Positions 3,201 through 30,899 of a stretch of 64,000 bases of DNA are shown one piece after another; the first letter of the stretch is position 1, and each line of letters starts with the position of its first letter. The stretch is from Nitrospirota bacterium. GTDB lineage: Bacteria > Nitrospirota > UBA9217. The notes beneath the pieces are model-generated. The model had not been told where the DNA came from. It saw only the letters and a list, made by a program, of their open reading frames with translations, and searched no databases. The DNA lies in contig CAVUCU010000004.1 in NCBI GenBank assembly GCA_963740085.1, positions 320,001 to 384,000 of the forward strand. Reading direction: 5' to 3'. The position numbers and the translations under genes were made by a program.

Positions 3201-3202
3201 AA

Positions 3203-3846: not shown

Positions 3847-3869
3847 CACGGGGCGACAAGAGCATCGAG

Positions 3870-5132: not shown

Positions 5133-5182
5133 TATAAAATTCATTTTCTCTTCATATTCCTGTAATACTAATCCTGTACTAT
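5128..5182 (+). promoter_or_regulatory. Pho-box-like promoter 2
   Basis: TTTAAT/ATTCAT/CTTCAT/TGTAAT at 5128,5139,5150,5161; -10 TACTAT at 5177. Confidence 0.78.
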
Positions 5183-5257
5183 TGATCCATAACAGAGCAG
5201 TGACATTAAGAAGTAAGAAGAAAAATACCGGTTAAATACAATTAAGGAGGCATTCCC

Positions 5258-5488
5258 ATGCAAAATCAGACAGCAGCACTTAGTTTGCAACGGATATACG
5301 ACAAGGAAAACGAACCACACGTACGCGCTATTGATGGACTTGTGCACGAACTCGGGATTCCCGCAGAGGAAGTCAACAGGTCGTATCGGGAGGTCCTTGA
5401 GGAACTGAACAAGGAGATCAAGGTGAAAGCATTCCTTCCGATCCTTGTCAGCAGAGTCGTTAAAGACCGTTTATTGCAGCATCGGTAA
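5258..5488 (+). CDS. DUF3562-like small helical protein
   Basis: AI..L..ELG.P.EEV...Y...L..L....KVKAFLPILVSR.VK pattern; AAGGAGG RBS. Confidence 0.7.
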   Translation: MQNQTAALSLQRIYDKENEPHVRAIDGLVHELGIPAEEVNRSYREVLEELNKEIKVKAFLPILVSRVVKDRLLQHR

Positions 5489-5604
5489 TACATCCTGTTC
5501 AACGGCGTCTTCAGGGGTTGCACGACTCCGGAATATTGTAAAACTTTTTTTAAAATGGGTGACGTTGACGCTTTTGCCCGGAATAAGGTGTGAGGTGATT
5601 GAGC

Positions 5605-5703
5605 ATGAATGAGAGTGTCCTGAAAGTAATTAAATACGGTCTCACAACAGCCGGGCTGCTCATCGGGATGCTGTTTCTTGTCCTTATCATTCGCGGGACA
5701 TAA
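5605..5703 (+). CDS. Putative 32-aa single-TM small protein
   Basis: MNESVLKVIKYGLTTAGLLIGMLFLVLIIRGT preceded by GAGGTG RBS. Confidence 0.5.
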   Translation: MNESVLKVIKYGLTTAGLLIGMLFLVLIIRGT

Positions 5704-5835
5704 ATAAGTTATTTTGCAGCTGTTCCCGATGTTATTGCAATATTAGCATGTGGAGGGCTGATATCAAAAAATAACCGGCAACCCGTGACAAATACTGTAT
5801 TGGATCACATTTATCCGGTCCGGAGCCAGCCAAGA

Positions 5836-5890
5836 TTTAATGAAATCGTAAAATTCTCGTCATAATCTTGTAACACGACTCGTATATGAT
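5836..5890 (+). promoter_or_regulatory. Pho-box-like promoter 3
   Basis: TTTAAT/CGTAAA/CGTCAT/TGTAAC at 5836,5847,5858,5869; -10 TATGAT at 5885. Confidence 0.72.
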
Positions 5891-5941
5891 TTGTTCTAAT
5901 CAAGTATAAGCAGATTATTCCCGGATTGAAAGGAGGTACTT

Positions 5942-6160
5942 ATGAGATTAAGTGACGTTGCATCTGGGCGCAATACAGTATGCGCAGAAGCACCTATGGC
6001 GACGTGCCCCTATGAAACAAGCGAAACAGGCAGCAGCAATTATTGTTCCGCCTCCATTATGACAGTTGTAACCAATAGTTTTCAGAAGATAAATTACTGC
6101 TGGACGGACAATTACGATAGCTGTCCGTTGTTCCTGTCGAAGGTTATGCGAAAGAAATGA
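5942..6160 (+). CDS. Small Cys-rich hypothetical protein (possible metal binding)
   Basis: AGGAGG RBS; CPY..YC..YC..CP spacing. Confidence 0.65.
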   Translation: MRLSDVASGRNTVCAEAPMATCPYETSETGSSNYCSASIMTVVTNSFQKINYCWTDNYDSCPLFLSKVMRKK

Positions 6161-6281
6161 CAGGTGGATTTACGCGAAATATACGGCTTAGGTTTACGGA
6201 TAATATCGTCGGCAGTCAGTATCCCCGTGGAAAGGGGAAGCAGGAGTTCACGTCCACAATAAATAACGCCAGGAGGTCCAA

Positions 6282-6485
6282 ATGTCTGATCAGAATGTAA
6301 GTCATGCCGTGTTGCATCTCAGTGAAAGAGAATCCGCCCAGCTTGCTCGTGCAGTTCAAATACTCATCCAGGAGCTTGGGTTCGATCAGGAAGAGGTGGA
6401 TCGCTCCTACAATGAAAGCCTGGCATATTTTATGAAAAATGATCGTTATGATCAGCGTTTAAGCGGCGATGCATGTTCCATGTGA
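6282..6485 (+). CDS. Small hypothetical protein, divergent DUF3562-like paralogue
   Basis: AGGAGG RBS; RAVQILIQELGFDQEEVDRSY aligns with RAIDGLVHELGIPAEEVNRSY of 5258..5488. Confidence 0.6.
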   Translation: MSDQNVSHAVLHLSERESAQLARAVQILIQELGFDQEEVDRSYNESLAYFMKNDRYDQRLSGDACSM

Positions 6486-6786
6486 AGATGAGTATAACTG
6501 CATAATTTCGCGATGCATCACAAAGGGCACCTATTGCAAACGCTGAACGATGAGGTCCTTCATGCAAGATGACTTTAACTTCGTGGCACGTTGATATTGT
6601 TAAACCGTTATTGAGACTGTTTTGCGACCGCCCGCATTCCTCAATGTATGCCAGATCACGGGGCGGAAAACAATTAATTGGAATATCACTTCCTCTTTAT
6701 ACTCCTGTAATGCCAACCTGTATCATCTACCCAATACCCGTTCGATCATCAGATTACTCCCGATGCCGAGCTGACAGGTTAAAACA

Positions 6787-6841
6787 TTTAACAGAAATTT
6801 AACATTTCCGTAATACTGGTGACATATCCAGTATGTATAAT
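6787..6841 (+). promoter_or_regulatory. Pho-box-like promoter 4
   Basis: TTTAAC/TTTAAC/CGTAAT/TGACAT at 6787,6798,6809,6820; -10 TATAAT at 6836. Confidence 0.8.
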
Positions 6842-6873
6842 TATTGCATACTTAATAATGATGAGGTTAATAA

Positions 6874-7182
6874 ATGATGGATAAAACATGCAGTCTTAAG
6901 TGTCCCGCATGCGCCTCTGAAGCGGTATATAAATACGGCCACTTAAAAAATGGAAAGCAGCGCCTCAAGTGCATTTTGTGCGGAAGACAGTTTGTCATTG
7001 GTATTTCGAGGCATGAAATGAGCAATCGTCCAACCTGTCCCCGATGCGGCCTTAAGATGCACCTTTACATGCATGACAAAATGGCGTTGCGATTCAGATG
7101 TTCGGAATATCCTGATTGTAAATCATATATAAAAATCCCTTATCAAAAGGAGGTCACCTCATATGAAAAGCTATGTTCATAA
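6874..7182 (+). CDS. Double zinc-ribbon protein (InsA-like ribbon plus topoisomerase-type C4 finger)
   Basis: CPAC..YKYG..GKQRLKCILCGRQF and CPRCG..FRCSEYPDC; no transposase catalytic domain. Confidence 0.7.
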   Translation: MMDKTCSLKCPACASEAVYKYGHLKNGKQRLKCILCGRQFVIGISRHEMSNRPTCPRCGLKMHLYMHDKMALRFRCSEYPDCKSYIKIPYQKEVTSYEKLCS

Positions 7183-7534
7183 TGTACCGGGAAGACTGCG
7201 GATAAAGAATGCCCTGTTTAAAAATGTCTCAATCCACTATGAAGTTCGAAAGGCCCTTGTGGATATGGGCCACGGCATCGGAGCCGCTGATTTCAATACG
7301 ACGACGGGCAGCCTTCTGATCAACTACAACCCGACAGAGGTCCATCATCAGGACATCCTGAGCGCCCTCGCGAGGGGAGGTTTTTATCATCCCGACAAAA
7401 CAATAACCAACGATCAGGTGATTCATCAGGCAACGTCCAAGGCATTCAATGTGGTAGCCAGGGCGGTTTCGGGGGCCTTCATCGACACTGCCCTGCAGGG
7501 CACTGGCTTGTCATTTCTGGCAATATTGCTATAA
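7163..7534 (+). CDS. HMA2-domain protein
   Basis: HNVPGRLRI and N..TGSLLINY motifs; GGAGG RBS. Confidence 0.75.
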   Translation: MKSYVHNVPGRLRIKNALFKNVSIHYEVRKALVDMGHGIGAADFNTTTGSLLINYNPTEVHHQDILSALARGGFYHPDKTITNDQVIHQATSKAFNVVARAVSGAFIDTALQGTGLSFLAILL

Positions 7535-7601
7535 AAAAGGTTGTGCCCGGCTGTTTTTTATATTCTATTTCGGCATATTACGCCGGTATGCGGTACTTTC
7601 A

Positions 7602-8477
7602 TTGATGGCATCTCTATTCGAAAAAGTTGAAACGGCAAGCCGGGAGCATGACAATGCCAGATCAGGAGGTATGCCAGTGTCTCCGGAAATGTGCGACTCT
7701 GAATCGCATAGCTTCTCCCTGGCGATGCAAAGGAAGCTGGAGCGCTTTTATGACAGACTCAAGCCTTTTTGTGTAACAACCCTGGGAAGTACCGCCTGCC
7801 TTGAATTCCCCGTTGACTATCTTGAAACCCTAAACCGTCATAACGAAGCAACTATTCGCCGTAAGGAATGGGCTGAAATATATAAAAATCTCGGTGACGG
7901 AAAGCCGGAGTATGATCTTTGGCTGGACAAATATGAAAGCATTCTTCAAGATGCCGATGATTTGCCGATCATCGACCTTGGATGCGGCTATGGAAATGAC
8001 ACGCTCTATCTTCACGAAAGAGGATATAGGGTTGTTTCCTGTGATCTTTCGGCAGAGGCTCTCAAAAGGTTGACTTACTTCATCGCCGAGCCCGTGACAA
8101 AACAATTCGACATGCTGAACGGACTCCCTTTTGCAAAAGATTCGGCAAAGATTATCATCGCAGATCTCTCGCTGCACTATTTCTATTGGGAAGATACCAA
8201 AAGTGTCCTCAATGATATACGAAGGGTGCTCGTAAATGGCGGCCATCTTTTGTGCAGGGTTAATTCCATCAGGGATACGAGCCATGGGGCAGGACAGGGG
8301 CGACGCATAGAGAAAAACTATTTCGAGGTACAAGGTCGTCTAAAAAGGTTTTTTAACAGGGAATGCGTTGAAGATCTTTTCAAAGACTGGTCGATCGAGC
8401 ATATAAACGAGGCCCCCCTGTACAGATATGGGAAAGAGAAGATCCTCTGGGAAGTAGCCGTAAAAAAGGCGAGTTGA
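7602..8477 (+). CDS. Class I SAM-dependent methyltransferase with N-terminal extension
   Basis: IIDLGCGYG motif I, CDLS, LSLHYF, LVNGGHL. Confidence 0.8.
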   Translation: MMASLFEKVETASREHDNARSGGMPVSPEMCDSESHSFSLAMQRKLERFYDRLKPFCVTTLGSTACLEFPVDYLETLNRHNEATIRRKEWAEIYKNLGDGKPEYDLWLDKYESILQDADDLPIIDLGCGYGNDTLYLHERGYRVVSCDLSAEALKRLTYFIAEPVTKQFDMLNGLPFAKDSAKIIIADLSLHYFYWEDTKSVLNDIRRVLVNGGHLLCRVNSIRDTSHGAGQGRRIEKNYFEVQGRLKRFFNRECVEDLFKDWSIEHINEAPLYRYGKEKILWEVAVKKAS

Positions 8478-8588
8478 TGAGTGAGGCGCCGTTTTTTATT
8501 CTCTACGGGATCACGGAGAGTAATACTTAGGTAAGGGACGTTCCGACAAGAGAGATATCATGACGCTGCATATATCATCAGCCAGCGT

Positions 8589-8891
8589 CTATCTCGTATC
8601 AGAATGCGAATCCCTGTCTTTCTTTTGCCGTATGTAACAATCGAGCAATGAGTCTATATTTTTCCACACCGTCTGGCTCGGTATATACCAGTTAACACGT
8701 ACGACGCTGATAGCCATGGTCATTTTATACTCATCCCACCTTACGCGCAGTACTGCTCCGTGCAGGCGCGTGTCAATGTCCCATGGATTGAATCCCCTTA
8801 TGATAGCCCCGTGCGAGGCTGCTTCAGTAAGTATCTTATCGATACTCGTTTTACTTATATCTCTGTAGTCGCGTGTACTGAATCCCGTCAA
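8589..8891 (-). CDS. Hypothetical protein
   Basis: 100-aa ORF with AAGGAG RBS; last gene of the minus-strand cluster. Confidence 0.55.
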   Translation of the reverse strand: MTGFSTRDYRDISKTSIDKILTEAASHGAIIRGFNPWDIDTRLHGAVLRVRWDEYKMTMAISVVRVNWYIPSQTVWKNIDSLLDCYIRQKKDRDSHSDTR

Positions 8892-8965
8892 TGGCTGCTC
8901 CTTAGTGGACCTGCAACGTCCGATTTGATCGCATATGAAAGAATCGTAACGGGGAGTAAATCTTT

Positions 8966-9226
8966 TTACAACTCCCGCGAATGGCCCCGCCGGCCTTCTA
9001 CGTCCGCTGTCGGCGTATTGTCACGCACAATGTCTTTTACCCTCTTTGAGACGAGCGCAGAGAGAAAGTATTTGATTCGCGCGGTCCGCGAATAATGCCT
9101 GAATACCATCCCATAGAGAGTCGATACGCGCTCCGTTGGCCGGTTCAGGCTCTGTGCAAGGTTTTCGATCGCGACCTGGTGATGACGTGGTCCAGACTCA
9201 ATATCCTGCAGAATACGTTTGTTCAT
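8966..9226 (-). CDS. DUF3562-like protein
   Basis: AIENLAQSLNRPTERVSTLY..ARIKYFLSALVSKRVK; ATG 9226 overlaps the CDF stop (ATGA). Confidence 0.7.
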   Translation of the reverse strand: MNKRILQDIESGPRHHQVAIENLAQSLNRPTERVSTLYGMVFRHYSRTARIKYFLSALVSKRVKDIVRDNTPTADVEGRRGHSREL

Positions 9227-10194
9227 GTTTCGTTCCCCCTTTCTAATCCCAAGGGTTCTTGCCAACAGGACGCAGGCTGCAGAAGCATTTGATCCTGCTG
9301 AAAGCCCGGAGTGTGCGCGTCGTGCACCGTCGTTGGAATGTGCTGCTGTATTTCATAACCCTCTATATAAATATCATATAAGCCGAATTTACCCCGCAAT
9401 AATTTCTTCATCCGTCTCATCGTATCACGGCCATATCCAGAACCATTCGTCCTGATCCGTGCCACCAGGATGATCTTATCCGGTGAAAGACCCCAGATAT
9501 GTATGTCCTTGATATGATGTATTTCGGGGAAAGTCTGCTGCAGAAATCTGACGATATCATCTGCATCTATGTTTGCAGGACTCCCTTCCATGAGGATCTT
9601 GATGCTGTCCCTGACCAAAAAAAAGGTCGGATACGCTGCCAGGCATCCGATCAGGATGCCGGCAAGGGGGTCCACAAAATACAGATGGGTATACCGTATG
9701 ATGACGGCAGCACCGATGACGCCCACCGAACCCAGAGTATCGTTCAGGATAAGAAGCAGCGCCCCCTTGATGTTAACATCCTTTGAGTAGCGGTAGAGTT
9801 GCACAAGACCGAAGGCATTCGCCATGAGACCTACAACGGCAATCATGAGGACCTTGTCCGCTTCAATGGGCTGGGGGTGCAGGATTTTCTGGAAGGCTTC
9901 CGTAAAAACATAGAACAGGATGAAGCCGACCAATATCCCGTTAAACAGACCGGAAAGCACTTTAGCGCGTTCGTACCCGAAGGTGTTTACCTTGTCCGGC
10001 CGTCGGCGGACGATCCTGGTCACCCATAACGCGATGATCTGACCTGAGACATTGACGGCCATGAACGACGCGTCCGTCACGAGGGCGATGCTGTGATAAT
10101 AAAGCCCCCCGAACAATTCCACGAAGAAATAGGAGATTGTTACAACAAGAACGAGCGTCTGGCCTTTTACGTGCGTTTCTTCTGTCTCGTGCAT
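9223..10194 (-). CDS. Cation diffusion facilitator (CzcD/ZitB-like)
   Basis: SIALVTDA, TFGYERAKVL, DTLGSVGVI, DPL, DIHIW motifs. Confidence 0.88.
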   Translation of the reverse strand: MHETEETHVKGQTLVLVVTISYFFVELFGGLYYHSIALVTDASFMAVNVSGQIIALWVTRIVRRRPDKVNTFGYERAKVLSGLFNGILVGFILFYVFTEAFQKILHPQPIEADKVLMIAVVGLMANAFGLVQLYRYSKDVNIKGALLLILNDTLGSVGVIGAAVIIRYTHLYFVDPLAGILIGCLAAYPTFFLVRDSIKILMEGSPANIDADDIVRFLQQTFPEIHHIKDIHIWGLSPDKIILVARIRTNGSGYGRDTMRRMKKLLRGKFGLYDIYIEGYEIQQHIPTTVHDAHTPGFQQDQMLLQPASCWQEPLGLERGNET

Positions 10195-10221
10195 GGTCCA
10201 CTGACCTTCCGTATAACTTTG

Positions 10222-11421
10222 TTATTCTTTCAAGAGAGAGGCCTTGTCAGTTAATTCCCAGGGCAGTCCGATATCCATTCTTCCTACATGACCGTACGCC
10301 GCGAGTTTACGATAAAAACCACCCTTGATCTGAGAGGGGAGGTGTCGAAGGTTGAACTGGCGTATGATCCCTGCCGGCCTAAAGTCGAAATGCTTCTGAA
10401 TAAGATCGGCGATGTTTTGATCAGATATTTTACCGGTCCCAAAGGTCTCTGCCTGGATGCTCACCGGTCGCGAAAATCCGATGGAATAGCTGAGCTGCAC
10501 CTCGCAGGCGGCGGCAAGTCCGGCTGCGACAACATTCTTTGCGGCATATCGAGCTGCATAGGCGCCGGTCCTGTCGATCCTTGAAGGGTCTTTCCCGCTC
10601 AAGGCTGCCCCGCTGATACGGGAGTATTCACCGTAGGTATCGATCGCGTTCTTTCTCCCGGTCAACCCTGAGTGCATGGCAGGACCGCCGCCGATAAAGG
10701 GTCCGTCGGGATTGATGAAGATCCGGGTGTGCTTATCAGGCTTGATCTCCTCGTCCTGAAAAACAGGACTCAGCACCGTTTCCCGGATATCGTCCTGGAG
10801 CCGTTTGGCATCGGGCCCCCCTTTGGGGGCCGTCCGCTTTTGGCTTGCAATAATGGTAATGCTGTGAACACGCGACGGTCTGCCGTCACGATATTCAATG
10901 CCGACCTGGGTCTTGCCGTCGGGCGCAAGATAGTCGAGCGTCTTCTGAAGCCGCACGGCCACAAGCTTCCTGGCAAGACGATGGGCGAGCCAGATGGGAA
11001 GCGGCATGAAGGCCGCGGTCTGATTGCAGGCAAAGCCGAACACCGTTACCTGGTTACGTGCAAGGATGCGTTCGATAACTTCCTCGGTCAGGGTACGTTC
11101 ATCGACCGACAAACTGCCGCCCGTAGGCACCTCGGTGAGGCTTGTTATGACGCTGCAGGTCTTTGCATTAAAGGCCCGCTCGTCATAGTCGACCTGGCTT
11201 ATGACCTGCCGGGCGATATTGGCATAATCGATCTTGGCCGAGGTGGCAAACCGCGCTGCGATGAAGACAATGGCCGTGGAAACAGCGCACTCGGCAATGA
11301 TATTCGCATAAGGGTCCTGCTGCAGAACATGATCGACGATCGCATCACTGATGATATCACAGAGCTTGTCAGGGTGGCCTTCGGTAACTGATTCCGAGGT
11401 GAACATGAAGTCCGTTTTCAT
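10222..11421 (-). CDS. metK: Divergent methionine adenosyltransferase paralogue
   Basis: FTSESVTEGHPDK, PDGKTQV, GLTGRK, SGKDP, AAYGH retained; GAGDQG signature absent. Confidence 0.85.
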   Translation of the reverse strand: MKTDFMFTSESVTEGHPDKLCDIISDAIVDHVLQQDPYANIIAECAVSTAIVFIAARFATSAKIDYANIARQVISQVDYDERAFNAKTCSVITSLTEVPTGGSLSVDERTLTEEVIERILARNQVTVFGFACNQTAAFMPLPIWLAHRLARKLVAVRLQKTLDYLAPDGKTQVGIEYRDGRPSRVHSITIIASQKRTAPKGGPDAKRLQDDIRETVLSPVFQDEEIKPDKHTRIFINPDGPFIGGGPAMHSGLTGRKNAIDTYGEYSRISGAALSGKDPSRIDRTGAYAARYAAKNVVAAGLAAACEVQLSYSIGFSRPVSIQAETFGTGKISDQNIADLIQKHFDFRPAGIIRQFNLRHLPSQIKGGFYRKLAAYGHVGRMDIGLPWELTDKASLLKE

Positions 11422-11448
11422 TGGGCACTCTCCATGCGCGATGCCTGC

Positions 11449-14400
11449 TCAGGTAACTGCGAAAACTTGATTTCCGTGCAATAACGGAACCGGTGTCGTT
11501 GAACTGCCATTCAGCGCAAACGGCGGAGCAGCTTTCTTCTTTGTCGCTTCATTGATGAGCAGCGGAGCGACAGCGGTCCCGATCGAAATCGCCAGGTCAA
11601 AGGGATTCAGCGGGCCCATTCCCAGGAAGCTCCGGAGGCCTGGAACGAACAGGGTAAGCGACTGTACTCCCAGCGAGGCTGTCAGGGCGACGGTAAGATA
11701 GTTGTTCGGTGCGAGCCGGTCAGCCTCAAAGATGCTATGGGTCTCGGAACGGTGGCTGATCGCGTGCAACAGCCCTGCCGTTACGAAGTTTGTGAAGGCC
11801 ATGCTGCTGGCCTGGGGACCCTGCCCGTAACGAAGGACACCGTAGCCGTATGCAGCCAGCGTCCCCGCAGAGATGGTGGACGCCTCGAAGAGAAGCCGTT
11901 TGAAGTCAGACGAATTGATAAGCTGCTCCTCGGGACTTCGCGGAGGCCGCAGAAGCACGTCGGGTTCAGGGGGCTCTTGGGCAAGGGCTATGCCGGGGAA
12001 GATGTCAGAGATCATGTTGATCCAGAGAAGCTGCATGACATTGAACGGCTGTCCCATGCCCGCGGCAAGAGAGGTGAACATGATCATGATCTCGGCCGTG
12101 TTCTTTGAGATCATGTATCTCACGGATTTTCGGAGATTGTTGTAAATCGTCCGCCCTTGGCTGATGGCCACGACCATGGTCTCGAGATTATCATCCTCGA
12201 GAACCACGTCCGCCACCTCTCGCGCCACATCGGTTCCCGTGTGACCCAGGGCGATCCCGATATCGGCTGCCTTGAGCGCGGGTCCGTCGTTGATGCCGTC
12301 TCCGGTCATGCCGATGACCTTTCCCGCTGACTGGAGCGCCTGGACGATCTGAAGTTTGTTTGCCGGGCTCACTCGTGAAAAGACATGCACCCGCCCGGCC
12401 AGAGCCTTCATTACCTCTGGTTCAAGCTGTGCGAGGTGAGTGGAATCAAGGATCTCCAATTCCTCGTCATTGCTGAGATTAAGTTCTTTCCCGATGGCAT
12501 AGGCAGTGGGACCCTGGTCCCCGGTAATCATCACCGTGTCGATCCCCGCTCGGTGGAACGTACTGATCAGGTTCTTAACACCCTTTCGCACCGTATCCGC
12601 CATACCGACGAGGCCGACCCAGACAAGTCCCTGCTGGAGGATCTCTTCGCTTTTTCTTGTGCTTTCGTCGCTCACCGCGTAAGTGACGGCAAGAACCCGG
12701 AGCGCTTCGCCGGCCATACGTTCATTATTCGCTTCGAAGACCGCGCGGGCATTGTCGTCCATTTCCAGTTGCCGGCCGTCCTTGATGTACCATTTGCATA
12801 GTGACAATACATCGGAGGGACTCCCCTTGAGGGCCAGAAGCCGCTGCCGGTCATTCGAACGGTGTATGGTGCTCATATACTGCCGGTCTTCCGATCGGTA
12901 GTTCAACTTCACGATCGGGTGCTGGGCCCGAAGCGAGTTGACATCCACACCGGCGCTGAGCGCAAGGTTCACGAGGGCGTTTTCCGTCGAGGAGCCCTCG
13001 ACGACGTAATCTCCTTCCAATTCTGATACTATCGATTCATTACAAAGCACCGACAGATGGAGCAGACGGAGGACATCCTCGTTCGTATAGGGATTGATGT
13101 TTTTCCCTTCCGCCATGATCCTGCCGTCAACAACATCGAGACGGCGCATGCCGGCATGCAACTGGACCACAGACATCTTGTTCATGGTGATTGTGCCGGT
13201 TTTGTCAAGACAGATGGTCTCGACCGAACCGAGCGTTTCGACGGCGTCAAGGTGACGGACGAGCACGTTCAGTCCCCTCATGCGCTTGATGCCGAGCGCG
13301 AGGGTCGTCGTCGTAACGGTCGGTAGCCCCTCAGGCACTGCGGCCACGGCCAGGGCAATGGAGGTCTTGAGCATCTGGAGAAAACCGTAACCGCGCAGAA
13401 TGCCTACAATGAACACGATGCCGCATACGGCGCAGGTGATATACACCAACTGGACCCCCAGGTGGTCCATCTGCCGTTCCAAGGGCGTATCGGGCGGCCG
13501 CGCCTCTCCCACCATGGTCTGGATCTTTCCGACCTCGGTAAATCGCCCTGTAGCCACGGCGACGGCGAGGCCTTGTCCTCCCGTGACCAGTGTGCCCATA
13601 TAGACCATGTTGGTGCGGTCGGCAAGGGGGATGTCCGGCACATGCAGTTCTTCGGTGGTTTTCATTACCGGCATGCTCTCGCCCGTCAATGCGGACTCAT
13701 CAATGCTCAGGTATTTTGCCTGTATGAGACGGGCGTCGGCCGCAATATAGCTTCCCGGTCTCAGTACGAGCATCTCGCCGGGAACGACCTCCTTGGCATC
13801 AATGGTCGTGATGACTCCGCCGCGGAGCACTATTGACGAAGGCTGTACGAGGCTCTTTAACCCATGGATGATCTTTTCCGTTTGGTTCTCGGTGTAATAC
13901 CCGATGGAGGAATTAATAACGACCACCCCCATGATCACGACGGCATCCGCAAATCCGCCTGTAGCAACGGAAATGCCCGCGGCAACACCAAGGAGAGCTA
14001 CGGGAAGGGACTTGAACTGATCGAAGAACATGCTCCAGCCGGAGCGGGGAACGGATTCGGGCAGAATGTTGGGACCATATTGGATGAACAAAAGACGGGC
14101 TGCTTCTTCGGACAGGCCTTCTGACGCCGAGGTGCCCCATCGCTGCAGCACATCCTTCCCTTCCATGCAGTGCCATTGCTCTTCCTGCTGGTCTTCGGCA
14201 TTGGCAACCTGTTTGCGAACGGTCCGCAGGCTAGGCGTTTTCTTGCCAGCAGTGGTAAGGTCGGGAGAGACGTCGGCGCGCACGGGCCGGACAACAACTG
14301 TTTCTTTCTTCTGCGACACAGCAGGGAACGGGTTTTTCTTCCCCTTGACCGGCTTGCCATTTTTGCGTTCGACTACGGACTTCAGGAGGGAAGCTACTGC

Positions 14401-14595
14401 TGATGCATGGTTGCCGTTCTGTGAATCGAACAGCACGAGAACGCTGCCCGTGAGGGTATTGATCGAAACGCTCAGGATCCACTTGTGCTGTGTGAGATGC
14501 TGCTCGATCCGCTGTTTCAACTGCTCTGAGCGATAAAGACCCTCTACCTTATAACGGGCCCGCCCTTTTACCGACGTATGAACGGCTTGGACCAC
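11449..14595 (-). CDS. Type IIA (Ca2+-type) P-type ATPase with N-terminal HMA2 domain
   Basis: TGES, VAAVPEGLP, DKTGT, GDGIND, TM5 SKNTAE, TM6 QLLWINMISD; N-terminal HTSVKGRARYK..NTLTGSVLV. Confidence 0.92.
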   Translation of the reverse strand: MVQAVHTSVKGRARYKVEGLYRSEQLKQRIEQHLTQHKWILSVSINTLTGSVLVLFDSQNGNHASAVASLLKSVVERKNGKPVKGKKNPFPAVSQKKETVVVRPVRADVSPDLTTAGKKTPSLRTVRKQVANAEDQQEEQWHCMEGKDVLQRWGTSASEGLSEEAARLLFIQYGPNILPESVPRSGWSMFFDQFKSLPVALLGVAAGISVATGGFADAVVIMGVVVINSSIGYYTENQTEKIIHGLKSLVQPSSIVLRGGVITTIDAKEVVPGEMLVLRPGSYIAADARLIQAKYLSIDESALTGESMPVMKTTEELHVPDIPLADRTNMVYMGTLVTGGQGLAVAVATGRFTEVGKIQTMVGEARPPDTPLERQMDHLGVQLVYITCAVCGIVFIVGILRGYGFLQMLKTSIALAVAAVPEGLPTVTTTTLALGIKRMRGLNVLVRHLDAVETLGSVETICLDKTGTITMNKMSVVQLHAGMRRLDVVDGRIMAEGKNINPYTNEDVLRLLHLSVLCNESIVSELEGDYVVEGSSTENALVNLALSAGVDVNSLRAQHPIVKLNYRSEDRQYMSTIHRSNDRQRLLALKGSPSDVLSLCKWYIKDGRQLEMDDNARAVFEANNERMAGEALRVLAVTYAVSDESTRKSEEILQQGLVWVGLVGMADTVRKGVKNLISTFHRAGIDTVMITGDQGPTAYAIGKELNLSNDEELEILDSTHLAQLEPEVMKALAGRVHVFSRVSPANKLQIVQALQSAGKVIGMTGDGINDGPALKAADIGIALGHTGTDVAREVADVVLEDDNLETMVVAISQGRTIYNNLRKSVRYMISKNTAEIMIMFTSLAAGMGQPFNVMQLLWINMISDIFPGIALAQEPPEPDVLLRPPRSPEEQLINSSDFKRLLFEASTISAGTLAAYGYGVLRYGQGPQASSMAFTNFVTAGLLHAISHRSETHSIFEADRLAPNNYLTVALTASLGVQSLTLFVPGLRSFLGMGPLNPFDLAISIGTAVAPLLINEATKKKAAPPFALNGSSTTPVPLLHGNQVFAVT

Positions 14596-14650
14596 GTACG
14601 ATTCCTCCCCATCTGAAATGGAAGCCGGTCACAAGCCAGGCAAGAACTGA

Positions 14651-15379
14651 TTAAGCCCGTTGCGACTTCGGCAGGGCGGTGCCAGCGACTTCTTTCACGC
14701 CTTCTACAACGCCGACCAGCATGTCCTTGACCGCCTTGACGGCTGTGTTGCCGATCAAAGATGCCGCATCGATCGCGCCCGTGACAGCAACCTTTGCAAC
14801 CTCCTCTGCATTCCCACCGACTTCCTTCGTGGCTTCGATCACGCCGTCTACGGCCCGCCGGGCAACCATGGCTACATCCGCACCGACCTCGGCCGCACCC
14901 TTGACAGCTCCTCTGACGGTCTGGCCTGCAACGGAAATCACGTCGCCGCCAACATCGCTCACTCCCATGATCACCCCTTTTGCAACGCTCTTGGTGCTCA
15001 GGATGAGGCCGGTGCCGACCTCTTCAGTAGCCTGAATGGCGCCCTTGACCACATCTTTCGTGATGTCAATTGCTTCGCCGGCGACCATGCCGGTTGCCCG
15101 CAGCGAATTGGAAACGGTGTTCCTGACAAGGCTGACTATCTCTGCTTCGATCTCGTTGATCCCCTTGAGACTGCTCACGACGCCCTCTTTCACGGTAGAG
15201 CCTGCTTTGCCGATGTCCTGGGCTGAAAATACAACTTCCGTGGCCTCTGCGCTTGTCATGTCTGTTCCTCCTCTTGTAGTCTTCGTTGTTGAGACTAGAT
15301 CATCCGATTTTGATGACGTGCCGCGCGGACTACGTTTCACGGACTTCTTCGTCGGCGCTTTTTGTTTTTGGTCACTCAT
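14651..15379 (-). CDS. Ala/Gly/Val-rich protein with ~22-aa amphipathic helical repeats
   Basis: Repeats KGAIQATEEVG / KGVIMGVSDVG / RGAVKGAAEVG / DGVIEATKEVG / TGAIDAASLIG; strong RBS at both 15379 and 15259. Confidence 0.75.
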   Translation of the reverse strand: MSDQKQKAPTKKSVKRSPRGTSSKSDDLVSTTKTTRGGTDMTSAEATEVVFSAQDIGKAGSTVKEGVVSSLKGINEIEAEIVSLVRNTVSNSLRATGMVAGEAIDITKDVVKGAIQATEEVGTGLILSTKSVAKGVIMGVSDVGGDVISVAGQTVRGAVKGAAEVGADVAMVARRAVDGVIEATKEVGGNAEEVAKVAVTGAIDAASLIGNTAVKAVKDMLVGVVEGVKEVAGTALPKSQRA

Positions 15380-15556
15380 AGTGTTACTCCTCCCAAGGTT
15401 TTATAATAATCGCATTACATTTTGTAGCCGGGTAGTTTGATAATTCCGGGGAACGGACTTCTGGTAAATGCCGGATTGTATTGCTTCTTAATGCCTTCGG
15501 AGCTAACAAGGCGGACACAGATGGAAGGGTTCCCGTCTTTCTCAGTGCTGCCAACG

Positions 15557-16045
15557 TTATTTCTTTTCGCCTTCTTTCACTATCTTTGAGTGGAGATTAT
15601 AAGCGTACCAGTACGCCGAGGACCACGGGATGGCCCCTCCATTCCCCGTCAGAATCTGCGCACTACCCGCCACAATCAGGGCTGCAACTGCAAAACCGCG
15701 CAGATCCATATCGCCGTCCGTGAGGTTCTGTATCTGCCGATCAATGCGCTTGAACGTCTCGCCAAGGTTTCGGTTAAGTTCTGCAGGGCGTACCCTGGAA
15801 CTCTTTTGTTCCTCTAAGGAAAAAAGATCCCCCGACCTTGCATACTCCGCAATCTCACGCACTGTCGTTTGGTGAAGCAAGAGTATACTCCCCGTACCCG
15901 GGTTCACCTCGATGGAGAGAACACCCGGACAAGCGGCAAGCTGATCCCCGTATGACTTCAGTGCCGCTAGGTTGCCTTTTTGTGAGGGGACCCTGATCCG
16001 TAATCTCCCGGTTGAAGTATGGGCGATGACGGCAGCCGGGATCAT
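15557..16045 (-). CDS. HMA2-domain membrane protein (FezC-like architecture)
   Basis: HTSTGRLRIR, NPGTGSILL, C-terminal hydrophobic hairpin ending PWSSAYWYA. Confidence 0.78.
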   Translation of the reverse strand: MIPAAVIAHTSTGRLRIRVPSQKGNLAALKSYGDQLAACPGVLSIEVNPGTGSILLLHQTTVREIAEYARSGDLFSLEEQKSSRVRPAELNRNLGETFKRIDRQIQNLTDGDMDLRGFAVAALIVAGSAQILTGNGGAIPWSSAYWYAYNLHSKIVKEGEKK

Positions 16046-16392
16046 GACGTGGCTGGCCTGGGCCTGCGTTTGGAGATTGCAGCCGTTACTGCAACCGGTG
16101 CCGCAGCCGGTGCCGCAACCGTGTCATTCACCGCTTCTGCTGCAGCCGCAGTCGTCTCGGCCAGTTCCGCCTTAGCTTCAGCCACAATATCTTCCGTAAT
16201 TTCAGCGATCTCGGCAAAGGCTTCCTTGCCGCGTTCATACATCTGCATACCTCCTTTTATCGCGGCTTTTGCCAGCGGCTTTGCGATCGTGGCAAACAGA
16301 GGAATGACTACGGGCGCCAGTACTGCGGCGCCGATACCGATTGCCAAACCGGTAATAAGACTACCTTTCAATCCACTATCTAACAGTCCCAT
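16042..16392 (-). CDS. DUF5132-family protein
   Basis: GLAIGIGAAVLAPVVIP..KPLAKAAIKGG..YE..EDIVAEAKAE; ATGA overlap with the next gene. Confidence 0.78.
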   Translation of the reverse strand: MGLLDSGLKGSLITGLAIGIGAAVLAPVVIPLFATIAKPLAKAAIKGGMQMYERGKEAFAEIAEITEDIVAEAKAELAETTAAAAEAVNDTVAAPAAAPVAVTAAISKRRPRPATS

Positions 16393-16503
16393 AATAGCAT
16401 GATCTCCTTTCTATAAAATTAATTGTAGTACTACAATGATGCAAAGTCTATCTTCTCTTTCATTACTTACCTACTAGTACTTGAGCAGCCAGTTCATTGC
16501 GCA

Positions 16504-16899
16504 TTACGCTTCAACACGGTTTTTTTTTGGTGCTTTCATGCGTGCCCTGGAGCCAGTCTTTGAACGCTTTGCAATGCTCTTGCCCTCGAGTATCCCGATC
16601 TGCGCTTCAAGGTCCTTGATTCGGGCCATGATCTCTTTGACACCTGCATTGAGAGCAGGGTTTTTGGCTTTGGCACTGCTTATGAGAACATACGTCTTGG
16701 CGCCGAGGTCGGTAATCGCTTCGTGGATCCGTGTCTTGAGTGTCAATACCTTGTACTGACGTTTCTTTTCTTTCGTGAGTTCCCCGGCTTTCTTCTGCAT
16801 CTCGACGGCGCCTTGTTTCACTGCCGCCATGCTTTTTTCCAGCCCTTGTTGCACGTCTTTTTTTATCTTGTTCCAGTTGAAGCCTTCCAAATATCCCAT
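16504..16899 (-). CDS. Hypothetical coiled-coil protein
   Basis: 131-aa basic helical ORF with GGAGG RBS. Confidence 0.65.
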   Translation of the reverse strand: MGYLEGFNWNKIKKDVQQGLEKSMAAVKQGAVEMQKKAGELTKEKKRQYKVLTLKTRIHEAITDLGAKTYVLISSAKAKNPALNAGVKEIMARIKDLEAQIGILEGKSIAKRSKTGSRARMKAPKKNRVEA

Positions 16900-17272
16900 T
16901 CGGTAACCTCCTGTAGTATGGAATGCTCAATTCATAAGTTAGAAGTATAGCACGCAAGAGTGTTTCTGGTAGTGAGATCATTAATAAACTTAAGGATGAA
17001 GTAAAAAAATAGCAGTGAGTGTATAAAATAACAGACAACTTGAAATGTAAATCTGGGACAAGAGCAAAAAATCTTGGACACGGATAAAGATGGAGTTTGT
17101 TATGAAAAGGCTGGATTACGTTATTGATTCATCCGCTTTGGTCACGGCCTGTTATCTGATTTTCTCCGTCGTGCCAGCGCTTATGAGTGTGTGTGCGAGG
17201 CAGGGTGTGTCAAAGATCTATTTTTTTGTCTGCTGCTGAGGGCCGCACCATAATCTTGGTATAATAGTATTT

Positions 17273-17953
17273 ATGGCTGCCGAAACAAAGCGTGACAGGA
17301 CTGAATGGGTGATACTGCTGCACGGCCTGGGCCGCTTCAGGCAATCCATGCGCAGGCTCGAGCAGCATCTGAAAAGCCGCGGCTATTCGACCATAAACCT
17401 CGCCTATCCCTCGACAACCAAATCGATCGAGACGATCGCCGAAATGCATCTTGCAGGCGCTGTAGATGTTTGTCAAAAGCAGGGTGCGGGGAAAGTCCAT
17501 TTCGTCGGTCACTCCCTTGGTGGCATTATCGTCCGTCAGTACTTGCAGCAACATCCTGTGCCCGCAGGCAGCCGGCTCGTTATGCTCTCATCGCCCAACC
17601 AGGGCAGTGAGCTCGCCGATCTGCTCATGCATGTCCCTCTCTACCGATGGATTATCGGACCGGCCGGACAGGAGCTCGGCAGGGGACCGGAGTCGGTGGT
17701 CAATCGCTTGAAGCCGGTCGGGATCGACATCGGCGTGATCGCGGGTAACTTGAGCATCAATCTTGTGTCCTCCGTGTTTATGGACGGCCCTCATGATGGC
17801 ACAGTTTCGGTGAAGAGCACCATGCTTCCGGAGATGAGAGACTTCATCGTCGTCCACAACACGCACACGTTTATTATGAGAGACCCGCTGGTAATGAGGC
17901 AGGTCACACATTTTCTCAGGCACGGCAGGTTCGACCACAGTGGGGCGGGATGA
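17273..17953 (+). CDS. Alpha/beta-hydrolase (esterase/lipase-like)
   Basis: LLHGL oxyanion motif, GHSLGG nucleophile elbow, DGTV, HTFI. Confidence 0.85.
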   Translation: MAAETKRDRTEWVILLHGLGRFRQSMRRLEQHLKSRGYSTINLAYPSTTKSIETIAEMHLAGAVDVCQKQGAGKVHFVGHSLGGIIVRQYLQQHPVPAGSRLVMLSSPNQGSELADLLMHVPLYRWIIGPAGQELGRGPESVVNRLKPVGIDIGVIAGNLSINLVSSVFMDGPHDGTVSVKSTMLPEMRDFIVVHNTHTFIMRDPLVMRQVTHFLRHGRFDHSGAG

Positions 17954-18233
17954 ACTGAATAGTAGCATCATTTGACACACAGTAATTTATATGTTGAAAA
18001 TGCTCAGCGTGAGATCGTCATGAAGCCGACAATCAAATTGAAATTATATATCACAATTCCCTGTGACTTAAAAGTAGGGATTTAATGATTGCTGCACTAC
18101 TATTACGTGTGCTTATGATAAAATAGAAAGAAAGGTCTCCCGGCGATTTCTTGGGTAAAAGGGAGATAAAAATTAAGACCGTCGAAACGAAGGTCATAGC
18201 TTGCGGTACTATATTAAATTAAGGAGTCGAACA

Positions 18234-18794
18234 ATGACAAACTCATTAACAACGGTACTTGAAAAAGTTCAGAACGGCCTTGGACAGGGCGGGGTTTTAG
18301 ATCAGGTCGATAAAATATTTCGGAAGCAGCAAAGAATCAATTTATTTGAAAAGCTCGAAAAGATCGATAATAAAGAGGTAGATAATTTCCCCGTCTCTCT
18401 TTATAAGAGCATCACGCCAAATGGCAAAAAACAGCCTGCCTTATTGCGCTTTTACCTTCCGTCCTGGAAAGGTCACGACGAGATCTTTTGGCACTCGCTC
18501 GGCGATTATGTTATTCTCGCGCTTCACCGGGTGACCGACGTTGACTTCGACAGCTCCAGAGGCCGGATGAAGGTGGCATATTTCCCCAAGATAAAAGGCC
18601 GGACAAAACACCCGGACGACATCAGGGTCGTCATCCAAAAAATTGCCTATCTTGTGGATACCGAAGCTTTGCCGACAGACTTTACCCGCTTCCGGCGCAT
18701 GACGGAACGACGAGGCAGTTTGGGCGAGATGAGCAAGTTCGAGGCCGCGGTACTAGGAACAATAATAGCGGAAGTTCCTACGATCTTAAGGTAG
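18234..18794 (+). CDS. Hypothetical protein
   Basis: AAGGAG RBS before ATG 18234; no recognised motif. Confidence 0.6.
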   Translation: MTNSLTTVLEKVQNGLGQGGVLDQVDKIFRKQQRINLFEKLEKIDNKEVDNFPVSLYKSITPNGKKQPALLRFYLPSWKGHDEIFWHSLGDYVILALHRVTDVDFDSSRGRMKVAYFPKIKGRTKHPDDIRVVIQKIAYLVDTEALPTDFTRFRRMTERRGSLGEMSKFEAAVLGTIIAEVPTILR

Positions 18795-19036
18795 AATATG
18801 AAAAATCAGGATTATTAGCAATACGATCAAAGTGGCTTTATCTTTGCTAAGATTTCCCGATCATTGCAGCATACAGTGAGAGGCGGATCAGGCATTCATC
18901 ATGAGGATATTCAGGACATCAATTGGGCAATGACCGTGCGTTCATATTATTGATGAAAATCATTCTGCACTGCCTCGCAAAACCCTCGATGACTGCTGAA
19001 CCCGCAACGCAGACCTGATCCGAGACTGTCAATAAA

Positions 19037-19091
19037 ATTAATTGAAATTTCATACCCTCTTCATACTCCTGTAATACCTTTTCTGTATCAT
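19037..19091 (+). promoter_or_regulatory. Pho-box-like promoter 5 (distal, lipid operon)
   Basis: ATTAAT/TTTCAT/CTTCAT/TGTAAT at 19037,19048,19059,19070; -10 TATCAT at 19086. Confidence 0.78.
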
Positions 19092-19149
19092 TGACCAAAC
19101 CCTGATTCGCCCCCCAATATTCCTATTTGCGAAAGCACAAATTATTATT

Positions 19150-19204
19150 CTTAACACAAATTTAATGTTATCTTCATACTATTGTAACAACAAAAGTATA
19201 AGAT
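19150..19204 (+). promoter_or_regulatory. Pho-box-like promoter 6 (proximal, probably leaderless)
   Basis: CTTAAC/TTTAAT/CTTCAT/TGTAAC at 19150,19161,19172,19183; -10 TAAGAT at 19199, 7 bp before the ATG. Confidence 0.78.
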
Positions 19205-19211
19205 ATTTTCA

Positions 19212-19904
19212 ATGCTTCTGTGCGATTTTCATATTCACACTACCTTTTCGGACGGGTCGGTTGAGATAAGGAAAACGATCGATCTTTTCGGACAGGCAGG
19301 CTTTGATGCCATCGCCATTACGGACCATGTCGTGAACGGCGATAACGTGATGGGTAAGTTCGCGCGACAGTTCAACCTGTCAATTCGGGGCGATAATTTT
19401 GATGAATATCTTTCCGCAGTCAGGTCGGAGGCGGCGCGGGCATGGGACAAATACGGGATGCTCGTCATCCCGGGTGTCGAGATCAGCAAGAATTACATAT
19501 CGAAGGATCATTCAGCCCATCTCCTCATTCTCGATATCAAAGAATTCATCCCCGCCTGCATGGACTACGAGGAGATCTTTCTCGAAGCTAAGCGCCAGGA
19601 AACCCTGACCGTTGCGTGTCACCCTCACCATACCCCGGATATGGTAAACAAAGACACGCTCTATCTCTGGAACAACCGAGACAAGTATGCAAAATATATC
19701 GATGCCTGGGAGATCGCGAACCGGGATGACGTTTTCAACGTGATCAGTCTGAAAAAATATCCTTATATTGCCAACAGTGATTTCCACAAAGTGCGCCACC
19801 TCTACTCGTGGAAAACACTGCTGAACTGCGAAAAGAACATCGACTCGGTCAAAAACTGCATAAAGCACAATAAAGGAGTCGCAATCACGCTCTTCAGGAA
19901 TTGA
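19212..19904 (+). CDS. PHP-domain phosphoesterase
   Basis: DFHIHT..SDG, AITDH, PGVEI, HP, NSDFH. Confidence 0.88.
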   Translation: MLLCDFHIHTTFSDGSVEIRKTIDLFGQAGFDAIAITDHVVNGDNVMGKFARQFNLSIRGDNFDEYLSAVRSEAARAWDKYGMLVIPGVEISKNYISKDHSAHLLILDIKEFIPACMDYEEIFLEAKRQETLTVACHPHHTPDMVNKDTLYLWNNRDKYAKYIDAWEIANRDDVFNVISLKKYPYIANSDFHKVRHLYSWKTLLNCEKNIDSVKNCIKHNKGVAITLFRN

Positions 19905-19954
19905 ATGATGATGGATCAAACATCTCATAAGCGCCACACTCAGGGAGGAACCGC

Positions 19955-21193: not shown

Positions 21194-21230
21194 GCGCGTG
21201 ACGGATCGATCAGTCAAGGTAGGGGGAACT

Positions 21231-30880: not shown

Positions 30881-30899
30881 ATTACTCAAGGAGTATTCC

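Follow-up and report, generated by a model that had tools for sequence, protein, structure and literature searches.

What is a calcium-type P-type ATPase doing among small membrane proteins of the kind that build ferrosomes, next to a rebuilt S-adenosylmethionine (SAM) synthetase and within a phosphate-starvation region? The question is raised by a locus of a Nitrospirota bacterium (GTDB lineage Bacteria; Nitrospirota; UBA9217) that lies in a 64,000-nt stretch of contig CAVUCU010000004.1 (assembly GCA_963740085.1, positions 320,001 to 384,000), hereafter the window, from a genome that is 98.5% complete. An earlier interpretation from the letters and their open reading frames (ORFs), which we call the sequence-only reading, had seen there a co-oriented run of genes, likened it to the ferrosome (fez) clusters and proposed that it builds a different compartment, perhaps a store of calcium or manganese phosphate or of polyphosphate. 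Here, we describe a cassette at the heart of this run, a real system that is widely conserved and as yet undescribed and whose regulatory signature is clear, and we weigh what it might do; the account that we prefer, tentatively and for a system known from genes alone, is that of a Pho-controlled module that would pump a Ca2+-like cation into a membrane-bounded store, following the logic of the ferrosome.

Gene calls from the ORF listing and from Pfam and NCBIfam scans of the window's proteins bear out the co-oriented run that had been claimed and place it on the minus strand (Table 1). In the order of transcription, the core genes encode a DUF5132 protein, a membrane protein with a CoBaHMA (Pfam HMA_2) domain, a repeat protein (rep242), a P2A-type ATPase that itself begins with a CoBaHMA domain, and a paralogue of MetK (MetK2), with a cation diffusion facilitator (CDF) and smaller genes further on. 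The tight packing noted earlier holds as well: the DUF5132 and HMA_2 genes share four bases, the gaps from rep242 through the CDF measure 27-55 bases, and one longer spacer of 177 bases separates the HMA_2 gene from rep242.

Conservation was surveyed by scanning an alignment of rep242 homologues against one genome per species, which returned 199 encoding loci, the best 80 of which were examined; most come from related Nitrospirota, and the locus counts are hence not independent. The five-gene core (DUF5132, HMA_2 protein, rep242, ATPase, MetK2) is complete and in that order in 45 of the 50 loci with enough flanking DNA, the other five being four orphan rep242 paralogues in genomes with a full cassette elsewhere and one partial cassette, so that the proposal that these genes belong together is well borne out. 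Gene by gene, DUF5132 lies upstream of rep242 in 58/64 loci with room for it, the HMA_2 protein gene is present in 64/72, a pump orthologue beginning at the CoBaHMA N-terminus follows rep242 in 67/75, and MetK2 is found in 53/60 loci with room. Among 40 relatives, six carry a full-length CoBaHMA-capped pump orthologue, and in a seventh, which belongs to another family, the gene lies in two parts on separate contigs; all seven retain the five genes in the same order. Identity across loci and phyla is 62-97% for rep242, the best conserved member, 60-91% for MetK2 and 45-94% for the pump. About 11 of the 80 loci are labelled as something other than Nitrospirota (Geobacteraceae, Desulfobulbaceae, Deferrimicrobium, Binatia, Planctomycetota, Pseudomonadota and 'Deltaproteobacteria'), labels that may reflect imperfect binning of metagenome-assembled genomes (MAGs). 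In the 35 large cassette loci (~8-10 kb on each side), a divergent pair of genes, encoding a zinc-ribbon protein (Znrib102) and a 123-residue CoBaHMA protein, recurs in 31 and 30 loci, respectively, and the CDF in eight; the cc131 gene is found in 12-14 and the DUF3562-like family in 24 of all 80 loci. The conserved unit is the five-gene operon together with the divergent zinc-ribbon/CoBaHMA pair, and cc131, the CDF, the DUF3562-like gene and hyp100 are accessory. The interval first drawn around the cluster was right about the five core genes but took in these accessory ones and missed the divergent pair (6874-7534).

The nature of the pump is the first clue to function. Aligned to human SPCA1, it reads VPEGLP in transmembrane helix 4 (TM4), ISKNTAEI in TM5 and INMISD in TM6, has DKTGT in the form CLDKTGTIT, and carries a glycine, thus a non-acidic residue, at the position of SERCA E908. 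By alignment, this ligand pattern is that of pumps with one Ca2+-type site, shared as it is with SPCA/PMR1 and LMCA1 (PEGLP in TM4, N and E in TM5, N and D in TM6, a non-acidic E908 position), and we presume for the individual TM4, TM5 and TM6 ligands the roles that they have in those pumps; the TM6 glutamine of PMR1, which we take to be linked to Mn2+ selectivity, is replaced by isoleucine. SPCA1 is also the best solved relative (500 bits), followed by Listeria LMCA1 (463) and SERCA (405). The PMR1-type NCBIfam model comes first at 610 bits (cut-off 798) and the SERCA-type second at 532, and because the pump misses the equivalog cut-offs of both TIGR01522 and TIGR01116, it is best placed in a separate subfamily. 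The heavy-metal P1B model gives 233 bits against a cut-off of 346, and the assignment to type IIA (P2A) rather than P1B, which the sequence-only reading had drawn from the PEGLP, N..E and N..SD motifs, is upheld. What sets the pump apart from SPCA/PMR1 and LMCA1 is its CoBaHMA cap (H6, R12, R14, K16), followed by a linker of ~80 residues, and its position in a clade of its own: a quick tree was built from six non-cassette paralogues and 20 cassette pumps, picked from the 59 so as to cover the range of loci, and in it a long branch sets the cassette pumps apart, with a Shimodaira-Hasegawa-like approximate likelihood ratio (SH-aLRT) of 100.

Names such as HMA and CDF might lead one to expect a cluster for detoxifying a transition metal (Zn, Co, Mn or Fe); HMA-superfamily domains and a CDF are indeed present, and genes for CorA and MntP lie near some loci. 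We nonetheless consider this very improbable. The pump's ligands are of the Ca type with no P1B motifs, the neighbours and cis-elements described below indicate phosphate and not metal control, and the infrequent CDF has lost both histidines of its site: aligned to ZnT7 and SLC30A4, it shows F, N, L and D in place of the H, D, H and D of ZnT-type CDFs, and does not match the Zn-type transport site H/D-x3-D (TM2) plus H-x3-D (TM5), changes that may point to a hard cation or to a different function. The HMA_2 domains, too, show the histidine and basic residues of a family whose published description gives it a conserved His before beta1, basic residues in beta1 and beta2, and no CXXC metal site; the basic face of these domains has been put forward in print, as a hypothesis, as likely to bind anionic lipids.

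The small proteins are what recall an organelle. The genome holds three HMA_2 domains in total, all at this locus, and a single DUF5132 copy, the one here. All three HMA_2 proteins carry the CoBaHMA signature H-x4-5-G-R-x-R-x-[RK], in which the His and Arg residues are invariant in alignments (H9, R14 and R16 in the 162-residue protein; H6, G10, R11 and R13 in the 123-residue protein), with the R-rich motif reading GRARYK in the pump, GRLRIR in the 162-residue and GRLRIK in the 123-residue protein. PF19991 is above its cut-off for the pump and the 162-residue protein and just under it for the third; on the strength of the shared signature, all three belong to the CoBaHMA family. For the 162-residue protein, described earlier as an HMA2 domain with a transmembrane part, the domain stands, and the hydrophobic C-terminal hairpin region falls under the Kyte-Doolittle threshold used. 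DUF5132 has an N-terminal Gly-zipper hydrophobic segment, LITGLAIGIGAAVLAPVVI, which contains the GxxxG seen at first reading and is followed by a long acidic/basic helix; within this sole hydrophobic segment lies G15-x3-G19-x-G21, with G19 and G21 invariant. The DUF5132 gene overlaps or abuts that of the CoBaHMA membrane protein in 24 of 33 pairs, and Znrib102 and the small CoBaHMA gene, which overlap by 20 bases in the window, are most commonly spaced at -19 (11/22 pairs). A complex prediction for the CoBaHMA membrane protein with DUF5132, run on alignments, scored 0.01, which is no verdict either way.

The remaining small protein, rep242, is a new family. Its period of 22 residues, with about eight copies, was recovered by autocorrelation (1.24 at lag 22, 1.12 at lag 44) as first described; the repeat is seen at the protein level only, Tandem Repeats Finder returning nothing for the gene. 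The repeats are charged and contain G-x3-G/A units, and an AlphaFold2 (AF2) model has five long helices (predicted local distance difference test, pLDDT, 76.9) after a variable N-terminal tail. Neither Pfam nor NCBIfam has a model that matches, and a search of the PDB with the predicted fold gave no significant match (best E 0.087). The family comprises 890 clusters at 50% identity at E<=1e-3 and 95 at E<=1e-30. One single ORF fuses a CoBaHMA-hairpin protein to rep242 (P0110), and in another, which comes from a truncated contig and calls for caution, rep242 runs into the start of the ATPase (P0105); these fusions tie rep242 physically to its membrane partners. A basic N-terminal tail was considered as a general feature and rejected, its net charge being above zero in just 28 of 74 orthologues.

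MetK2 is a remarkable member. The genome has two MetK genes, a housekeeping copy (604 bits to TIGR01034) and MetK2 (376 bits). As in MetK itself, all three methionine adenosyltransferase (MAT) domains are matched (PF00438, PF02772, PF02773) and the TIGR01034 cut-off is exceeded, and when 55 cassette orthologues were aligned to the solved E. coli enzyme and compared with the genome's own housekeeping MetK, the Mg/K/triphosphate ligands H14, D16, K17, E42, D163, R244, K245, K265 and D271 (E. coli mature numbering) were identical in 55/55, with K165 retained in 53/55. The differences lie elsewhere: E55 is R, D238 is H and K269 is R in 55/55, D118 is Asn in 47/55 and Asp in 8/55, L, S, F or V takes the place of Q98, P/L-[VA]-[RK]-N-Q-V stands where MetK has its GAGDQG motif, and the gating loop is lengthened by a conserved 10-residue insertion. 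E55, Q98 and D238 are the residues that we take, from the E. coli and human enzymes, to hold the methionine moiety, and D118 and D238 presumably matter far more to the formation of SAM than to the hydrolysis of tripolyphosphate. With GAGDQG and the methionine-site residues replaced, MetK2 is therefore not filed as a SAM synthetase, and the remodelling that had been proposed for it is confirmed; judging by the residues kept and changed, the family is under strong selection, the triphosphate of ATP is almost certainly still handled, and a basic pocket has taken the place of the acidic amino-binding one.

These features bear on a further possibility, namely that the cassette remodels membranes so as to spare phosphate, with MetK2 supplying a SAM-like sulfonium or adenosyl donor that would go into a lipid or envelope head group free of phosphorus, the CoBaHMA and DUF5132 proteins acting on lipids, and the ATPase ancillary. 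The cassette does recur beside GT21/PHP, OlsB/OlsA-like or OlsF-like, LPG-synthase-TM and lipase-like genes, and the published suggestion that CoBaHMA domains may bind lipids would suit it. We find it improbable all the same: no transferase conserved in the cassette could use the product of MetK2, which, with the methionine ligands gone, is not SAM, and the pump, invariant in the cassette and larger than any other member, has its ion ligands intact.

The regulatory signature was found by comparing the 150 bases upstream of DUF5132 in 61 loci. In the window, the element TAGGYAAGTAATGAAAG directly precedes a -35-like TAGACT, a 17-nt spacer and TACAAT, and across loci it abuts a -35-like T(A/G)GACA with a -10-like hexamer 17-18 nt on. 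A strict pattern for TAGGYAAGTAATGAAAG matches 70 times over the 1.2 Mb of loci, where shuffled sequence gives 1.8 matches; of the 70, 55 are no more than 260 nt upstream of DUF5132 and cover 52 of the 61 loci, and the others are mostly upstream of orphan rep242 genes, homologues of a hypothetical gene (hyp197) or a CDF. Its only exact copy in the genome is this promoter, whose position puts the start of the operon at DUF5132 and therefore cc131 outside it. Two copies with one mismatch elsewhere in the genome are within control expectation, and the one examined (L101) was judged to be chance; a perfect 14-bp palindrome, TTGTAGTACTACAA, which overlaps the -10 of the same promoter, was also set aside as an element, having one copy in the window, within chance, and being conserved in the closest relatives only. 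Orphan second copies of rep242 (loci L036, L054, L057, L074, L043 and L044, whose genomes have a full cassette as well) are often preceded by the promoter element, and in L054 an MntP-like gene lies upstream. The hyp197 gene, which matches no family, is 58-95% conserved near cassettes in seven loci; in some genomes it too is preceded by the element, a degenerate copy of which, TAGGGATTTAATGATTG, lies at ~18075 in the window, and its matches in the ESM Atlas are below 0.9 and serve as leads only.

A second signal precedes the regulator operon. The Pho-type genes of the window share a direct repeat, TGTAAC-N5-T[GT]TAAC with 11-bp phasing (variant TCATAC-N3-TGTAAC), which occurs eight times in the window (0.98 in shuffles), in each case upstream of one of these genes: psiE, the PHP230/GT21 gene, the response regulator-histidine kinase (RR-HK) gene before pstS, and pstS. 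Because of its architecture and its position before pstS, we regard it as a putative PhoB box. It precedes pstS in 19/24 loci, often in two boxes at a distance of 22 bp, and Znrib102 in 17/41, and was found upstream of DUF5132 in 0/33, of MetK2 in 0/57 and of the pump in 0/75. The 12-mer ATACTCCTGTAA occurs exactly three times in the window, at 6699 (Znrib102), 19063 (PHP230/GT21) and 25679 (the RR-HK gene ahead of pstS); when one mismatch is allowed, the count rises to five against 0.04 expected. Znrib102 itself has invariant C10, C13, C33, C36, C55, C58, C76 and C82 and folds in an AF2 model as two ribbons (pLDDT 75.5); a fold search of the PDB gave nothing significant, the weak neighbours (E 0.04-0.15) all being nucleic-acid-binding ribbons. 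We propose as a hypothesis that Znrib102 is the factor that acts on the TAGGYAAGTAATGAAAG element.

The wider neighbourhood points the same way. In the window, a phosphate-limitation island on both sides of the cassette (Table 1) encodes a metallophosphoesterase, a low-molecular-weight phosphatase, PsiE, GH1, PHP with GT21, a receiver protein, a bifunctional OlsF-like acyltransferase/GNAT, LPG_synthase_TM, histidine kinases and pstS-pstC/A-pstB-phoU. When the ORFs of the 80 loci were clustered without prior labels, PstS was a neighbour in 25, PstC/A in 21, PstB in 20 and PhoU in 17, followed by GT21 (12), OlsB-like and OlsA-like genes (11 each), an OmpR-type regulator, CorA and GH1 (nine each), PsiE (eight), and PhoH, LMWPc and Metallophos (five each), in an order and orientation relative to the cassette that vary between loci. 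The placement of the cluster in a phosphate-starvation region is thus correct in the window and recurrent across loci. No carbonic anhydrase, bicarbonate transporter, polyphosphate kinase or iron gene (Feo, Fur, DtxR) was recurrent in these clustered loci.

From this material we infer that the cassette is a self-contained accessory unit of the phosphate-starvation response in these anaerobes, and the mechanism that we tentatively prefer runs as follows. Phosphate limitation would activate the Znrib102 operon via the PhoB-type direct repeat, as the cis-elements suggest, and a dedicated factor, probably Znrib102, would then drive the main operon through TAGGYAAGTAATGAAAG beside the -35. Since its TM4, TM5 and TM6 ligands are those of single-site Ca2+(/Mn2+) pumps, the ATPase would be expected to move a hard divalent cation out of the cytoplasm, and the three CoBaHMA domains, DUF5132 and the helical rep242 would, by analogy, organise its patch of membrane. 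The cation would load into a membrane-bounded store with a phosphate-containing or other anion, formed under starvation control as ferrosomes are under Fur. MetK2 would still bind ATP and cleave its triphosphate, no longer binding methionine; it probably adenosylates an anionic acceptor that has no amino group, or else sources or hydrolyses inorganic tri- or pyrophosphate. That ferrosomes and calcyanin-type carbonate inclusions use the same kinds of domain favours, by analogy, a membrane-bounded store, and the organelle reading is plausible, if unproven.

Several points weigh against such a store. Bacterial P2A pumps normally export Ca2+ over the cytoplasmic membrane, and because the lumen of an organelle is topologically periplasm, sequence cannot separate a store from export. 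A phosphate-containing store made during phosphate starvation would be paradoxical unless it worked as ferrosomes do. Moreover, PPK1 (PF02503) and PPK2 (PF03976) have no match in the window's own genome and none in its 24 family relatives, whether the cassette is present or not, so that a canonical polyphosphate store is unlikely here. In the group of 41 genomes, PPK1 occurs in one and PPK2 in three, none from the window's family, and the polyphosphate variant of the sequence-only reading is weakened accordingly; a correlation between the cassette and the absence of polyphosphate kinases was considered and rejected, the family being without matches regardless of the cassette. Relatives of rep242 are also fused to a MucR zinc finger, to GGDEF and, weakly, to a receiver domain, so that a domain for signalling or interaction suits it just as well as a coat does, and in the ESM Atlas rep242 matched a 'phasin family' cluster (0.93), a lead only, since recognition fell short of the mark. 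The ferrosome preprint reports an R-rich N-terminus on CtpC as well, so that the motif is not specific to organelles (10.1101/2020.01.10.902569). Finally, the putative Pho box and the role proposed for Znrib102 come entirely from motif statistics.

The secretory pathway receives metal from PMR1/SPCA pumps, and the secreted proteins of mycobacteria receive it from CtpC. The cassette might likewise involve no compartment: when phosphate is short, the pump would export Ca2+ or Mn2+ into the periplasm, either to hold down cation levels in the cytoplasm or to metallate secreted Pho enzymes, with the small proteins as pump regulators whose CoBaHMA domains sense the loss of anionic phospholipid. Taken by itself this is rather doubtful, and it ranks just behind the store as nearly as likely. 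It is suggested by the pump's closeness to SPCA1 and LMCA1, by the Pho linkage of the cassette, by the phosphoesterases in the same island (Metallophos, PHP, LMWPc), by the lipid-binding hypothesis published for CoBaHMA, and by the ferrosome preprint, which names both the metallation of secreted proteins by CtpC and the R-rich motif of that pump (10.1101/2020.01.10.902569). It offers, however, no role for MetK2 or for the strongly conserved rep242, leaves the travelling of three CoBaHMA proteins and DUF5132 with one exporter unexplained, and must accommodate ordinary P2A paralogues in the same genome that have no CoBaHMA, DUF5132 or partners.

In the other direction, the membrane-bounded store can be taken further. 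An unlikely but distinctive possibility is a new organelle, a Pho-regulon-controlled, membrane-bounded store of Ca2+ (or Mn2+/Sr2+) built from a toolkit of CoBaHMA and small Gly-zipper proteins that is general to cation-mineral organelles with exchangeable pumps, in which MetK2 would be a new enzyme that uses ATP C5' chemistry on an anionic acceptor. In its boldest form, that acceptor would be orthophosphate, the products AMP and inorganic triphosphate, and the outcome a condensed phosphate in a lineage in which neither PPK1 nor PPK2 was found.

Table 1. Features of the cassette and its surroundings in the window (positions in nucleotides; minus-strand genes are transcribed towards lower numbers).
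Feature	Position	Strand	Description
DUF5132 protein	16042-16392	-	116 residues; operon gene 1; PF17195, E 8e-13
CoBaHMA (HMA_2) membrane protein	15557-16045	-	162 residues; PF19991, E 9e-14, profile positions 10-153 of 154
rep242	14651-15379	-	242-residue repeat protein; ~8 copies of a 22-residue repeat
P2A-type cation ATPase	11449-14595	-	1048 residues; HMA_2 at residues 4-63, then Cation_ATPase_N, E1-E2, Cation_ATPase_C
MetK2	10222-11421	-	MetK paralogue; TIGR01034 375.8 bits (cut-off 309.4)
CDF transporter	9223-10194	-	accessory; from family scan
DUF3562-like protein	8966-9265	-	accessory; small, basic; PF12085, 28.1 bits (cut-off 26.3)
hyp100	8589-8891	-	accessory; 100-residue ORF from the ORF listing
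cc131	16504-16899	-	basic 131-residue protein; 5' of the operon promoter; not core
Promoter element TAGGYAAGTAATGAAAG	16457-16473	-	directly 5' of the -35-like hexamer of the DUF5132 operon
Palindrome TTGTAGTACTACAA	16423-16436		rejected as an element
Znrib102	6874-7182	+	two zinc ribbons, four invariant Cys pairs; candidate regulator
Third CoBaHMA protein	7163-7534	+	123 residues; HMA_2 28.6 bits (cut-off 30); hydrophobic C-terminal tail
Pho-box-like site TTTATACTCCTGTAATG	6696-6712	+	upstream of Znrib102
Methyltransferase	7602-8477	+	TehB/DVU_1556-like, SAM-dependent; not core
hyp197	18234-18794	+	no family match
Phosphate-limitation island	1796-5132 and 19212-31577		see text
Possible integrated element	32046-38255		phage-type integrase at 34937-36226

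The surroundings of the cassette add some detail. The G+C content is 0.55-0.57 over the cassette (10000-16000) against 0.44-0.50 in both flanks, an excess that, together with presence in just seven of the 40 relatives, fits an acquired or mobile accessory unit. The DUF3562-like gene has an internal ATG at 9224-9226 that would give an ATGA overlap with the CDF stop, and cc131, a putative coiled-coil protein, matched nothing in the Pfam and NCBIfam scans. Between the CoBaHMA pair and the cassette lies a gene for a TehB/DVU_1556-like methyltransferase, full-length in the closest relative only and with partial matches in two more loci, hence not core. Further away, a lamin-tail-domain protein, a helix-turn-helix protein, a phage-type integrase and a 589-residue ORF with no family occupy a region that may be an integrated element, with G+C falling to 0.41 at 34-36 kb. 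A scan of 5000-20000 against Rfam at E<=1 found no family.

If the store reading is true, the cassette would be the third combination of CoBaHMA-type and small Gly-zipper proteins with a cation transporter, after ferrosomes and calcyanin-type inclusions, and one that differs in pump class and regulon, which would suggest a modular toolkit and open a route to further such systems through their gene neighbourhoods. The cassette also provides a directly testable SAM-synthetase paralogue with a rebuilt methionine pocket and an intact triphosphate site, a large uncharacterised helical-repeat family, and a two-tier regulatory scheme in which a Pho-box-like site serves the regulator operon and a dedicated element the structural operon. 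Its hosts are Thermodesulfovibrionia-type Nitrospirota, Geobacteraceae and other MAGs, sediment bacteria, and if the cassette stores a cation phosphate, it would bear on the cycling of phosphorus and calcium where they live.

How, then, does the cassette compare with what is known? In keeping with the first claim that it was new, we found no published description in the literature on DUF5132, CoBaHMA, PF19991/IPR033456/PF17195, or the Pho regulon with a P-type ATPase (the last of these being work on eukaryotes throughout), and Gaschignard et al. 2024 may list CoBaHMA-P-type ATPase architectures. Acidocalcisomes, as portrayed in PMC4594416, differ in that neither a polyphosphate kinase nor VTC was found here and the CDF is accessory, and are alike in pairing a Ca2+-ATPase with a CDF-family transporter and in a link to phosphate metabolism, an H+-PPase gene (and one for a Ppx/GppA protein) being present elsewhere in this genome.

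The closest functional model remains the ferrosome. As described in two preprints, fez clusters encode a pump with an R-rich N-terminus (RxR/RxRxR), an HMA protein with two transmembrane segments and a GxxxG protein (Grant et al. 10.1101/2020.01.10.902569; 10.64898/2026.06.16.732667), and a fur mutant forms ferrosomes constitutively (same sources); the earlier of the two places the RxRxR/K motif on FezB and FezC (10.1101/2020.01.10.902569). In common with fez, the cassette has a cation P-type ATPase that bears RxR/RxRxR at its N-terminus, an HMA-type membrane protein of its own that also bears this motif, a small hydrophobic protein with GxxxG (here DUF5132), a patchy accessory distribution in anaerobes and, if the cis-elements are read correctly, control by a nutrient's starvation regulon (here Pho). 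It fails the feature that defines fez, a P1B-6 pump (FezB, with the TM motifs D[Y/F]SCA and HNxxT) in an iron context: its pump is P2A (PEGLP, N..E, N..SD), its neighbours are Pho genes with no recurrent iron genes, and for MetK2, rep242 and Znrib102 we know of no counterpart among the Fez proteins. The comparison is, moreover, between ferrosomes and a cassette known from genes and not from granules, the small proteins being matched by motif and described architecture. The scaffolding likeness to fez proposed at the outset therefore stands for the RxRxR/K motif on three HMA_2 proteins and for the GxxxG protein, and does not extend to the pump or the iron context.

A closer published parallel, which the sequence-only reading had missed while being partly right about the ferrosome, is the neighbourhood of the calcyanin gene (ccyA) in Microcystis. 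There the transporter is a Ca2+/H+ exchanger (cax), where the cassette has a pump; the hosts here are non-photosynthetic anaerobes; carbonic anhydrase and bicarbonate transporter genes are not conserved near the cassette; and, judged from the description of the (GlyZip)3 domain, no cassette gene appears to encode three apolar GlyZip motifs of ~50 residues. The genes beside ccyA are reported to encode DUF5132 proteins, a CoBaHMA-hairpin protein and the exchanger, and to be co-expressed (bioRxiv 10.1101/2024.07.07.602159; PMC8890360), and the architecture given there for DUF5132, a Gly-zipper segment followed by a long charged helix, matches that of the protein here (bioRxiv 10.1101/2024.07.07.602159, the one paper found to name the family). 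In both settings, a DUF5132 protein, a CoBaHMA protein with a helical hairpin and a Ca2+ transporter, which for the cassette is the putative Ca2+-type pump, are encoded side by side.

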